Assembly (NCBI RefSeq): GCF_003334355.1
Contig: NZ_QOWP01000007.1
DNA length: 64,000 nt
Strand: one strand, 5' to 3'
Origin: Escherichia coli
GTDB lineage: Bacteria; Pseudomonadota; Gammaproteobacteria; Enterobacterales; Enterobacteriaceae
Numbering within the stretch: the first letter of the stretch is position 1; the number at the start of each line of letters is the position of its first letter. This document shows, in pieces, positions 3,694 to 5,308 of this stretch. A model generated the notes under the pieces. That model did not search any database and was not told where the DNA came from. It saw nothing but the letters and a program-made list of their open reading frames with translations. The position numbers and the translations under genes are program-made.

Positions 3694-4062
3694 CTATACC
3701 CCAAAGCTTTCGCCACAGCCACATTCATTCTGGGCTTTAGGGTTGTGAAATTTGAATATCTGATTAAGTCCTTCACGAACGAAATCGACTTCCGTGCCAT
3801 CAATAAACGGCATCGCTTGCAGCGGGACAAACAGCTTCGCGCCGTCGTGTTCAAACAGCAGATCGTCTTTGTCCGGCTCGCTAACACTGTCGAGCACATA
3901 GCCAAAGCCCGCGCAGCCCGTTTGCTTCACGCCTAAGCGCACGCCGACCATACCTGGCTGCTTTGCCACCAGCTCGCGGATGTGTATCGCCGCTGCGGGT
4001 GTCAACGTTAAGCCTTGCCAGGCGAAATCTTGTGGGTTAAAGGTTCCTGAATGCATGTCCAT
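3694..4062 (-). CDS. sufA: Fe-S cluster A-type carrier SufA
   Basis: 122-aa ORF with C-terminal CGCGESF motif. Confidence 0.95.
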
Positions 4063-4105
4063 CGATTTACCTCACTTCATCGCTTTCAGCGTATAACAGC
4101 ATGTT

Positions 4106-4124
4106 AGTGATAATGATTATCAGT
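4106..4124. promoter_or_regulatory. Fur box in the suf operon promoter
   Basis: TGATAATGATTATCA at 4108-4122, about 45 bp upstream of the sufA start; close to the Fur consensus GATAATGATAATCATTATC. Confidence 0.6.
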
Positions 4125-4337
4125 TCAACCCAGCAAACGCAGGGGCTTTACCGTAAAACATGCTTTTTGCCTGCTTTTAATAAGCATAGACCCTGATGTG
4201 TGGGTTAACAGGCACGCTAAGAATTAGGTATCTCATTGTTAGATAATGGTTATTATCTAAGGAGCATTAAGGCTGTGATGAAAAAGAAAAAGTTGTATTG
4301 AAAATGACTATTTAAGAGATAGGTAAAAAAGTGCAGC

Positions 4338-4456
4338 GTTCAGAAATAAGAAAACCCTTAAGTCTGTGCGACACAGGCTTAAGGGTTTCTACCCCATCCG
4401 GCGCTTATCTCCGGCACTCTCAGTGGCTTAGCTCTTGAAGGGGCGATAAGAATAAT
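4338..4456 (-). ncRNA. Candidate small RNA region (rydB maps between sufA and ydiH in K-12); contains a strong hairpin at 4345-4375
   Basis: Stem CCCTTAAG...CTTAAGGG flanked by A-run and T-run at 4345-4380. Position recalled, not verified by alignment; exact ends uncertain. Confidence 0.3.
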
Positions 4457-4609
4457 CTCATAAAGCTAACCCGCCGTTTTAACACAAACTGCGATTAGTA
4501 TTATTTTTGAACAATATCAGGCGGTAGATAAGCAGTATTAAGAAGGTCATCGAACCTGGACGGAGGTTAATCCAGGTCGATTTGGCGAACTTGCGGCATT
4601 AAGTCAGGA

Positions 4610-4798
4610 TCAATGCACGCCCAGACGCCAGGCAAAGTAGATTTCTTCTTTTAATTCAGCAGAAGAGAGAGTAAGCAGGTCAGCAAATTCAAGTTCTAGT
4701 TGTTTCAGACGTTTGAGATATTGGGCAGGTGAAAGATTGCTCTGGTCACGGCGTAAAAATTCAATGGCCAGCTGGGTGGGATCAAGTTGAGTAGACAT
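4610..4798 (-). CDS. ydiH: Small uncharacterized protein YdiH
   Basis: 62 aa from MSTQLDPTQ...; longer upstream extension in ORF track is probably not translated. Confidence 0.7.
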   Translation of the reverse strand: MSTQLDPTQLAIEFLRRDQSNLSPAQYLKRLKQLELEFADLLTLSSAELKEEIYFAWRLGVH

Positions 4799-4897
4799 AG
4801 CATCCTCGCTTTTAGACAAGACCTGCACAGTATACCACCGTTTACTGTGCAGATAATGACCAAAAGCAATATGCGTCACACTTTTCTGGTGACAACG

Positions 4898-5308
4898 TCA
4901 CAAAATGGCGGTCGTCAATCGTGACGAACAGCACAAACGCCCTTTCTCATCGAAGATTTCAATCTGCCAGACCTGGTGACGCGAACCGAGATGCAACGGT
5001 TTGCATACGCCGCGCACCCGCCCTTCTCGTGCCGAGCGGACGTGGTTAGCATTGATTTCCAGACCAACCACTTTTTGCTCACCTTCGGTACATAAATAAC
5101 CGGCAACGGAACCGATACTTTCGGCCAGTACCACGGATGCTCCTCCATGCAGCAACCCGAAAGGCTGCTTTGTCCGCGAGTCTACTGGCATTGTCGCTTC
5201 AAGGGTGTCATCACCAATATGTTCAAAGCGAATATCCAGGAACCCCACCATGTTTCCTTCACCCATAGCATTCAGTGCTTCCAGGGTGATTTTCCGTTTC
5301 CATATCAT
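4898..5308 (-). CDS. menI: 1,4-dihydroxy-2-naphthoyl-CoA hydrolase (hotdog thioesterase)
   Basis: 136-aa ORF; ATGA overlap with the upstream ydiJ stop. Confidence 0.9.
   Translation of the reverse strand: MIWKRKITLEALNAMGEGNMVGFLDIRFEHIGDDTLEATMPVDSRTKQPFGLLHGGASVVLAESIGSVAGYLCTEGEQKVVGLEINANHVRSAREGRVRGVCKPLHLGSRHQVWQIEIFDEKGRLCCSSRLTTAIL

Follow-up and report, generated by a model that had tools for sequence, protein, structure and literature searches.

The sufA–rydB spacer

The window under study (i.e., the whole 64-kb stretch of Escherichia coli DNA that was analysed, and to which all positions refer unless stated otherwise) is collinear with MG1655, the window coordinate equalling the NC_000913.3 coordinate minus 1,760,324; over 3 kb, the two differ by 20 substitutions. 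Its minus strand carries, in this order, sufA (3694–4062), the rydB sRNA, ydiH (4610–4798), menI, and ydiJ. The 547-nt spacer at 4063–4609 is present in 5,422 of the 5,426 complete E. coli genomes, mostly with an identity of at least 99%, and accommodates rydB on the minus strand at 4384–4444 according to Rfam (RF00118, 81.6 bits) or at the equivalent of 4389–4456 according to the MG1655 annotation. An Rfam scan of the region yielded rydB as its sole find, the remaining matches being far below the gathering thresholds. Directly 3′ of rydB, a 17-bp hairpin followed by TTTTCTTATTT (4352–4388, minus strand) is likely a terminator that shields the suf control region against transcription from upstream. 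The features discussed below, i.e., an inverted repeat and a short open reading frame, were situated by the initial annotation in the suf–ydiH intergenic region. They indeed lie upstream of suf, but since rydB and the hairpin intervene before ydiH, they are located in the sufA–rydB spacer rather than in a plain suf–ydiH spacer.

Two further observations concern this part of the locus. Both the MG1655 annotation of rydB and its Rfam match end just short of the strong hairpin at 4352–4388 (window 4341–4456). Since this hairpin looks like the rydB terminator, the annotated 3′ end of rydB may be too short; the stem of the hairpin varies across Escherichia species. Further upstream, a perfect inverted repeat (CTGCACAGTA-N10-TACTGTGCAG, 4822–4853) is located between menI and ydiH, just upstream of the ydiH start. 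It gave a sub-threshold Rfam match (mir-1278, 22 bits) and could be an operator or a hairpin in the ydiJ–menI–ydiH transcript.

The control region of the iron–sulfur operon suf, with its inputs from Fur, IscR, IHF, and the peroxide sensor OxyR, is among the best-studied in E. coli. The transcription start site of sufA is located on the minus strand at 4094 (NC_000913.3 position 1764418), where the SMRT-Cappable-seq operon table lists, among the rows considered, the reverse-strand start of the b1684–b1679 operon (supplement of PMC6131387). This start agrees with a –35 (TTGAAC) and –10 (TAACAT) pair flanking the suf Fur box (TGATAATGATTATCA, 4108–4122), which thus occupies the spacer between both promoter hexamers. 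An OxyR site with the tetrads ATtG-N7-CTAT-N7-ATAG (vs. the consensus ATAG-N7-CTAT-N7-ATAG-N7-CTAT; Toledano et al. 1994) is situated at 4297–4322, i.e., –203 to –228 from the sufA start site. Three elements of this control region have been named, i.e., ORE-I (OxyR), ORE-II (IHF), and ORE-III (IscR/Fur), and far-upstream binding of OxyR, binding and bending by IHF, the looping that requires IHF to bring OxyR near the sufA promoter, and the loss of OxyR-dependent induction in ihf mutants have all been described in the literature (PMC8593673; PMC8300815).

Between the OxyR site (4297–4322) and the IHF core (4229–4241), and overlapping the conserved IHF site, the sequence TTAGATAAT-GGTT-ATTATCTAA at 4239–4260 constitutes a perfect 9-bp inverted repeat with a 4-nt spacer, spanning –145 to –166 relative to the sufA start site. 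Its 9 + 4 + 9 architecture is exact, and it is distinct from the suf Fur box. ORE-I is said to have been placed at –236 to –197 and ORE-II at –156 to –127 by Lee, Yeo and Roe in 2004 (Mol Microbiol 51:1745), limits that correspond to window positions 4291–4330 and 4221–4250, respectively; the IHF site at the palindrome is one that we take to be their ORE-II. Of the options offered by the initial annotation, the one that made the palindrome part of the suf upstream regulatory region has thus held up, as the repeat overlaps the conserved IHF site and lies promoter-proximal of the OxyR site. In other words, the OxyR–IHF regulatory region at sufA is already known, and the palindrome maps onto its IHF site and the neighbouring spacer.

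Conservation of the IHF site and its spacing

One genome per species was scanned with SufA, which yielded 80 loci (five from Escherichia and 75 from other Enterobacteriaceae). Their upstream alignment revealed discrete conserved islands within a diverged background, i.e., an OxyR-type array, an IHF-type element, the 13-mer GGGTCTATGCTTA, the IscR region, and a block comprising the –35 box, the Fur box, and the –10 box. With the 13-mer taken as the anchor of the alignment, a perfect match to the IHF consensus WATCAANNNNTTR (Craig & Nash 1984; Rice et al. 1996) was located exactly 50 bp upstream of this anchor in 44 of the 75 non-Escherichia species, while the remaining ones mostly displayed one mismatch at the identical register. 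In nearly all species, the OxyR motif was found 69–70 bp upstream of the IHF core, and the core 50 bp upstream of the anchor; a loop induced by a protein requires such a fixed OxyR–IHF–anchor geometry.

The position-by-position consensus of the element reads AAA-nnC-ATTATT-WATCAA-nnnA-TTR-AA, with a tract rich in A/T located roughly one helical turn 5′ of the core (AAA at –12 to –10 and ATTATT at –6 to –1 in the 75 species). In E. coli, this A/T-rich 5′ flank is the palindrome (ATAATAACCATTATC), of which the two arms fare very differently. The sufA-proximal arm (4239–4247, minus strand; sufA-strand sequence ATTATCTAA) has as its homologue the conserved ATTATTWAT, which in other genera abuts and overlaps the IHF core, while the distal arm (4252–4260, minus strand; TTAGATAAT on the sufA strand) is not conserved except for its last two bases, which lie in the conserved AAA tract. 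When computed over 72 species, the information content amounted to 1.26 bits per column for the IHF core and 1.19 for the proximal arm, vs. 0.40 for the distal arm. The trough of conservation for the whole region was situated at 4254–4286, and the distal arm, the Shine–Dalgarno (SD) sequence, and the ATG of the mini-ORF discussed below all fall within the least conserved stretch (0.2–0.4 bits per column), with the SD at 0.21, the SD-to-start interval at 0.27, and the start codon at 0.16 bits per column.

The palindrome is therefore probably no element of its own but the A/T-rich 5′ flank of the sufA promoter's IHF site (ORE-II). The symmetry, together with the neighbouring seven-codon ORF, would have arisen by chance in the Escherichia lineage and would serve no function. 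IHF would bind the core at 4229–4241 together with its A/T-rich 5′ flank, which would be palindromic in E. coli by chance, and would sharply bend the DNA at this site. Since IHF bends DNA, OxyR bound about 70 bp further upstream (at approximately –203 to –239) could reach RNA polymerase, and the bend would bring it next to the polymerase at the Fur/IscR-controlled promoter. Selection would then act only on the sufA-proximal arm and the adjacent core, and the 30–40 bp between the IHF and OxyR sites would form a spacer constrained in length but free in sequence, inside which the distal arm, the AAGGAG motif, and the ATG of the mini-ORF would sit. This assignment fits with the E. coli sufA promoter, in which the ORE-II IHF site occupies the same place (approximately –135 to –166), with the far-upstream OxyR site on one side and the promoter on the other. 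The WATCAANNNNTTR core and A/T-rich 5′ flank are common to Enterobacteriaceae at a fixed spacing, whereas the flank is perfectly dyad-symmetric in E. coli and a few close relatives only, such symmetry being no hallmark of IHF sites.

In addition, the core of Escherichia carries two mismatches to the IHF consensus. The core in Escherichia (TAACAATGAGATA, minus strand) lacks the T at core position 3 that is present in 75/75 of the other species and the T at position 11 that is present in 70/75, and the E. coli core at 4229–4241 fits the IHF consensus at 7/9 specified positions on either strand, its complement (TATCTCATTGTTA) also scoring 7/9. Given these two departures at near-invariant positions, the precise contacts made by IHF in E. 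coli can be assigned only tentatively, and since the complement matches the consensus equally well, the Escherichia site may have changed in orientation or affinity. Judging from the alignment, the IHF site has been remodelled in the genus Escherichia, and the Escherichia-specific flank, palindrome included, could contribute to IHF binding or replace part of it. In the other 75 Enterobacteriaceae, the core reads TATCAAnnnnTTG, and the two Escherichia substitutions hit positions that are 93–100% conserved there; TATCAATGAGTTG represents the restored form of the Escherichia core.

Within E. coli, strain AST217 (L087) carries a 6-nt deletion at window 4280–4285 that drops one unit of an AAAAAG-AAAAAG repeat and shortens the otherwise strictly conserved OxyR–IHF spacing by 6 bp in that strain.

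The 13-mer that served as anchor (4181–4193, minus strand, approximately –87 to –99 from the sufA start site) deserves separate mention, as it is the most conserved element upstream of sufA (1.91 bits per column) and nearly invariant in the ~80 species. To our knowledge, no factor has been assigned to it. Read on the sufA strand, the 13-mer is TCTATGCTTA(A/T), in agreement with the extended –10 consensus of sigma-S (KCTAYRCTTAA). ChIP data from Salmonella have indicated binding of RpoS but not RpoD upstream of suf (PMC11548764), and SELEX with E. coli sigma32-holoenzyme has yielded a peak near window 4222 between sufA and rydB (PMC5493296). The 13-mer may be a second promoter or the site of an unknown regulator. 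Between this 13-mer and the IscR region, an E. coli-specific plus-strand sequence (AACATGCTTTT, 4158–4168) resembles an NsrR half-site (AANATGCATTT) and forms an imperfect inverted repeat with 4179–4187; other genera carry AAAAAGGGCG at this position.

Symmetry of the palindrome and candidate regulators

The probability of encountering a perfect inverted repeat of at least 9 bp with a spacer of at most 10 nt was estimated at ~0.03 for a 547-nt spacer of equal composition, and at ~0.006 for the local 55 nt. Across the 64-kb window, however, ~2 loci with a perfect inverted repeat of this class are expected by chance (vs. 14 observed), so that a single chance palindrome is unsurprising.

Conservation of the palindrome across Enterobacteriaceae, proposed in the initial annotation as a check of its relevance, was not found. 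Outside Escherichia, the arm positions formed a mean of 2.6/9 complementary pairs, vs. 2.7 when the arms were drawn from different species, which places the symmetry at background in the 75 species. Within Escherichia, the distal arm occurs as TTAGATAAT, ATAGATAAT, TTTGATAAT, TTCGGTAAT, or TCCGATAAG, while the proximal arm stays ATTATCTAA and is only once ATTATTTAA, and no proximal-arm changes that compensate for the distal-arm variation could be detected among the six Escherichia species. Within E. coli, 59% of the genomes are identical over 4222–4305, and the commonest variant alters the spacer of the palindrome (GGTT to GATT), with some strains displaying an arm mismatch. The arms are intact in most of the E. 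coli genomes sampled; however, because the whole spacer is 95–100% identical across E. coli, this retention within the species weighs little either way. Taken over these comparisons, the symmetry of the palindrome appears not to be under selection, and we infer that it is without function.

The best surviving alternative, although an improbable one, is that a dimeric regulator uses the palindrome as its operator, i.e., as a second, weak Fur site or a site for another factor, which was acquired in Escherichia and competes with IHF or modulates OxyR looping. Its perfect symmetry is locally improbable, as estimated above, its arms are retained in most sampled E. coli genomes, and the degenerate IHF core indicates that the region was remodelled in this lineage. 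On the other hand, the symmetry decays within the genus without compensation and is absent elsewhere, and the ~2 palindromes expected by chance per window equally speak against this option.

The Fur variant of this alternative, which stems from the initial annotation reading the arms as a spaced Fur-like GATAAT/ATTATC pair, can be judged against the Fur consensus (GATAATGATAATCATTATC) and the 7-1-7 motif (TGATAATnATTATCA). The palindrome does resemble a Fur box in that one GATAAT and one ATTATC, both Fur-type hexamers, are inverted with respect to each other in a Fur-regulated promoter region, and it scores 13/19 on the consensus and 11/14 on the 7-1-7 motif. These scores nevertheless are at chance level, as the 64-kb window contains 25 sites with at least 13/19 and as 52% of random spacers of equal composition reach 12/19, while the true suf Fur box scores 16/19 on the 19-bp consensus and 14/14 on the 7-1-7 motif. 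Moreover, the hexamers of the palindrome are separated by 4 nt instead of the 1 or 7 nt of Fur sites, and are thus half a hexamer out of phase. A Fur box comprises at least three NATWAT hexamers in phase and is conserved in orthologous promoters; the palindrome presents no such in-phase array and its distal half-site is not conserved outside Escherichia, unlike the true suf Fur box, which is nearly invariant. The latter also overlaps the –35/–10 region, whereas the palindrome is located ~150 bp upstream of the promoter. The combination of a chance-level score, the wrong phase, and an unconserved distal half leaves the Fur reading unsupported.

A more specific version of this scenario, in which the remodelling of the Escherichia IHF site (with two core bases lost and a flank turned palindromic) would have created an operator for a second, dimeric regulator that competes with IHF (e.g., Fur at a weak, out-of-phase site, or an unknown factor), is very unlikely. 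If true, such a second regulator would gate the OxyR-dependent activation of suf by iron or another signal.

Elsewhere in the window, the second-best match to the Fur consensus (GATAATAAGAATCATTGTT, 14–15/19) was found at 29244–29268, just upstream of a small ORF starting at 29292 that is presumably ydiE (HemP-like). This match looks like an ordinary Fur box.

Less probable still is that the distal arm provides the –10 box (GATAAT, 4257–4252, minus strand) of a weak second promoter directed towards sufA, with ATCACA as its –35 box. A consensus scan did return this pair (ATCACA-16-GATAAT, 9/12, minus strand, 4279–4252), and the in vitro SELEX peak of RNA polymerase with sigma32 near window 4222 in the sufA–rydB spacer (PMC5493296) lies in the vicinity. 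This peak, however, is of low resolution and concerns sigma32 rather than sigma70, and a score of 9/12 is the minimum of the scan, with shuffled sequences yielding 1.4 such sites in the region. In addition, both hexamers are unconserved outside Escherichia, and the sole suf start among the listed rows of the SMRT-Cappable-seq operon table is that at 1764418.

The seven-codon ORF

The other element pointed out by the initial annotation was a mini-ORF encoding MKKKKLY (ATG AAA AAG AAA AAG TTG TAT TGA; 4278–4301, plus strand), preceded by a GTG (4275–4277, plus strand) and by what was called a strong Shine–Dalgarno sequence. As sequence features, the ATG-to-TGA frame and the AAGGAG hexamer (4259–4264, plus strand) are indeed present. 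The distance from this hexamer to the ATG is 13 nt and that to the GTG 10 nt (vs. a usual spacing of 5–9 nt), and the hexamer is limited to K-12-like E. coli. At 13 nt from the ATG, the SD is too distant for efficient initiation.

That a divergent transcript on the plus strand is translated into MKKKKLY, which would then act as a leader or regulatory peptide, is the least credible of the functional readings, even though the mini-ORF has an ATG with a GTG directly before it, an AAGGAG, and a stop codon in frame. No promoter-like site was found on the plus strand upstream of the mini-ORF in a consensus scan of 3900–4950, and no forward-strand start between 1758864 and 1768976 occurs among the listed SMRT-Cappable-seq operon rows (PMC6131387 supplement). 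Furthermore, there is no plus-strand gene downstream that the mini-ORF could lead, and no feature is annotated at its position in the curated MG1655 record or in the RefSeq genomes inspected. Although the mini-ORF resembles upstream leader peptides and validated E. coli small proteins in being a short intergenic ORF with an SD-like sequence, it differs from leader peptides in its poor SD spacing and in having neither a promoter nor a downstream gene on its strand.

The mini-ORF also differs from validated small proteins in that its SD, start, and stop are not conserved. The five other Escherichia species carry ATTGAG, AAGAAG, AAGTGG, AAGGGG, or GAAGAG at the position of the SD, and in four of these five a CGA or TGG replaces the TGA stop. 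In the same four, the second codon is GAA, so that the frame would yield MEKKKLYRK or MEKKKLYWK. While the ATG and the lysine-rich codons are kept in six Escherichia species, the moving stop and the K2E and Y-to-H changes argue against a maintained peptide, and in none of the 75 other Enterobacteriaceae species does the aligned position hold an ATG. The conservation of the mini-ORF across the family that was to be checked therefore does not extend beyond Escherichia for start, SD, or frame.

Moreover, those bases across the mini-ORF that are conserved can be explained by overlapping transcription-factor sites. The lysine run corresponds to the AAAAAG-AAAAAG A-tract adjoining the OxyR site, and the ORF ends with two codons that run into the first OxyR tetrad. 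The conserved bases are accordingly those of this tetrad (under TAT-TGA) and of the adjacent T/A-tract that supplies the lysine codons. The deletion in strain AST217 leaves the frame intact, which could be taken to favour translation; yet, it is in frame only because the tandem repeat unit AAAAAG measures 6 nt, a single unit having been lost through slippage. On the comparative evidence, which speaks strongly against a gene, MKKKKLY is most likely not one, and the mini-ORF, like the symmetry of the palindrome, would have no function of its own.

An RNA hairpin formed by the palindrome was rejected because its weak stem (–6 to –8 kcal/mol) is what any A/U palindrome would form, no U-tract follows, and no known transcript runs across it, while Lrp and LysR-type boxes at the palindrome were poor matches as judged by eye only.

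The preferred reading thus remains that the palindrome is the A/T-rich flank of a known IHF site. As such, the finding itself matters little, and its useful outcomes are negative, i.e., the palindrome should not count as a second Fur box, and MKKKKLY should stay off small-protein lists. A minor comparative gain is that the OxyR–IHF–promoter spacing is strictly conserved in ~80 species of Enterobacteriaceae, with Escherichia carrying a degenerate IHF core.
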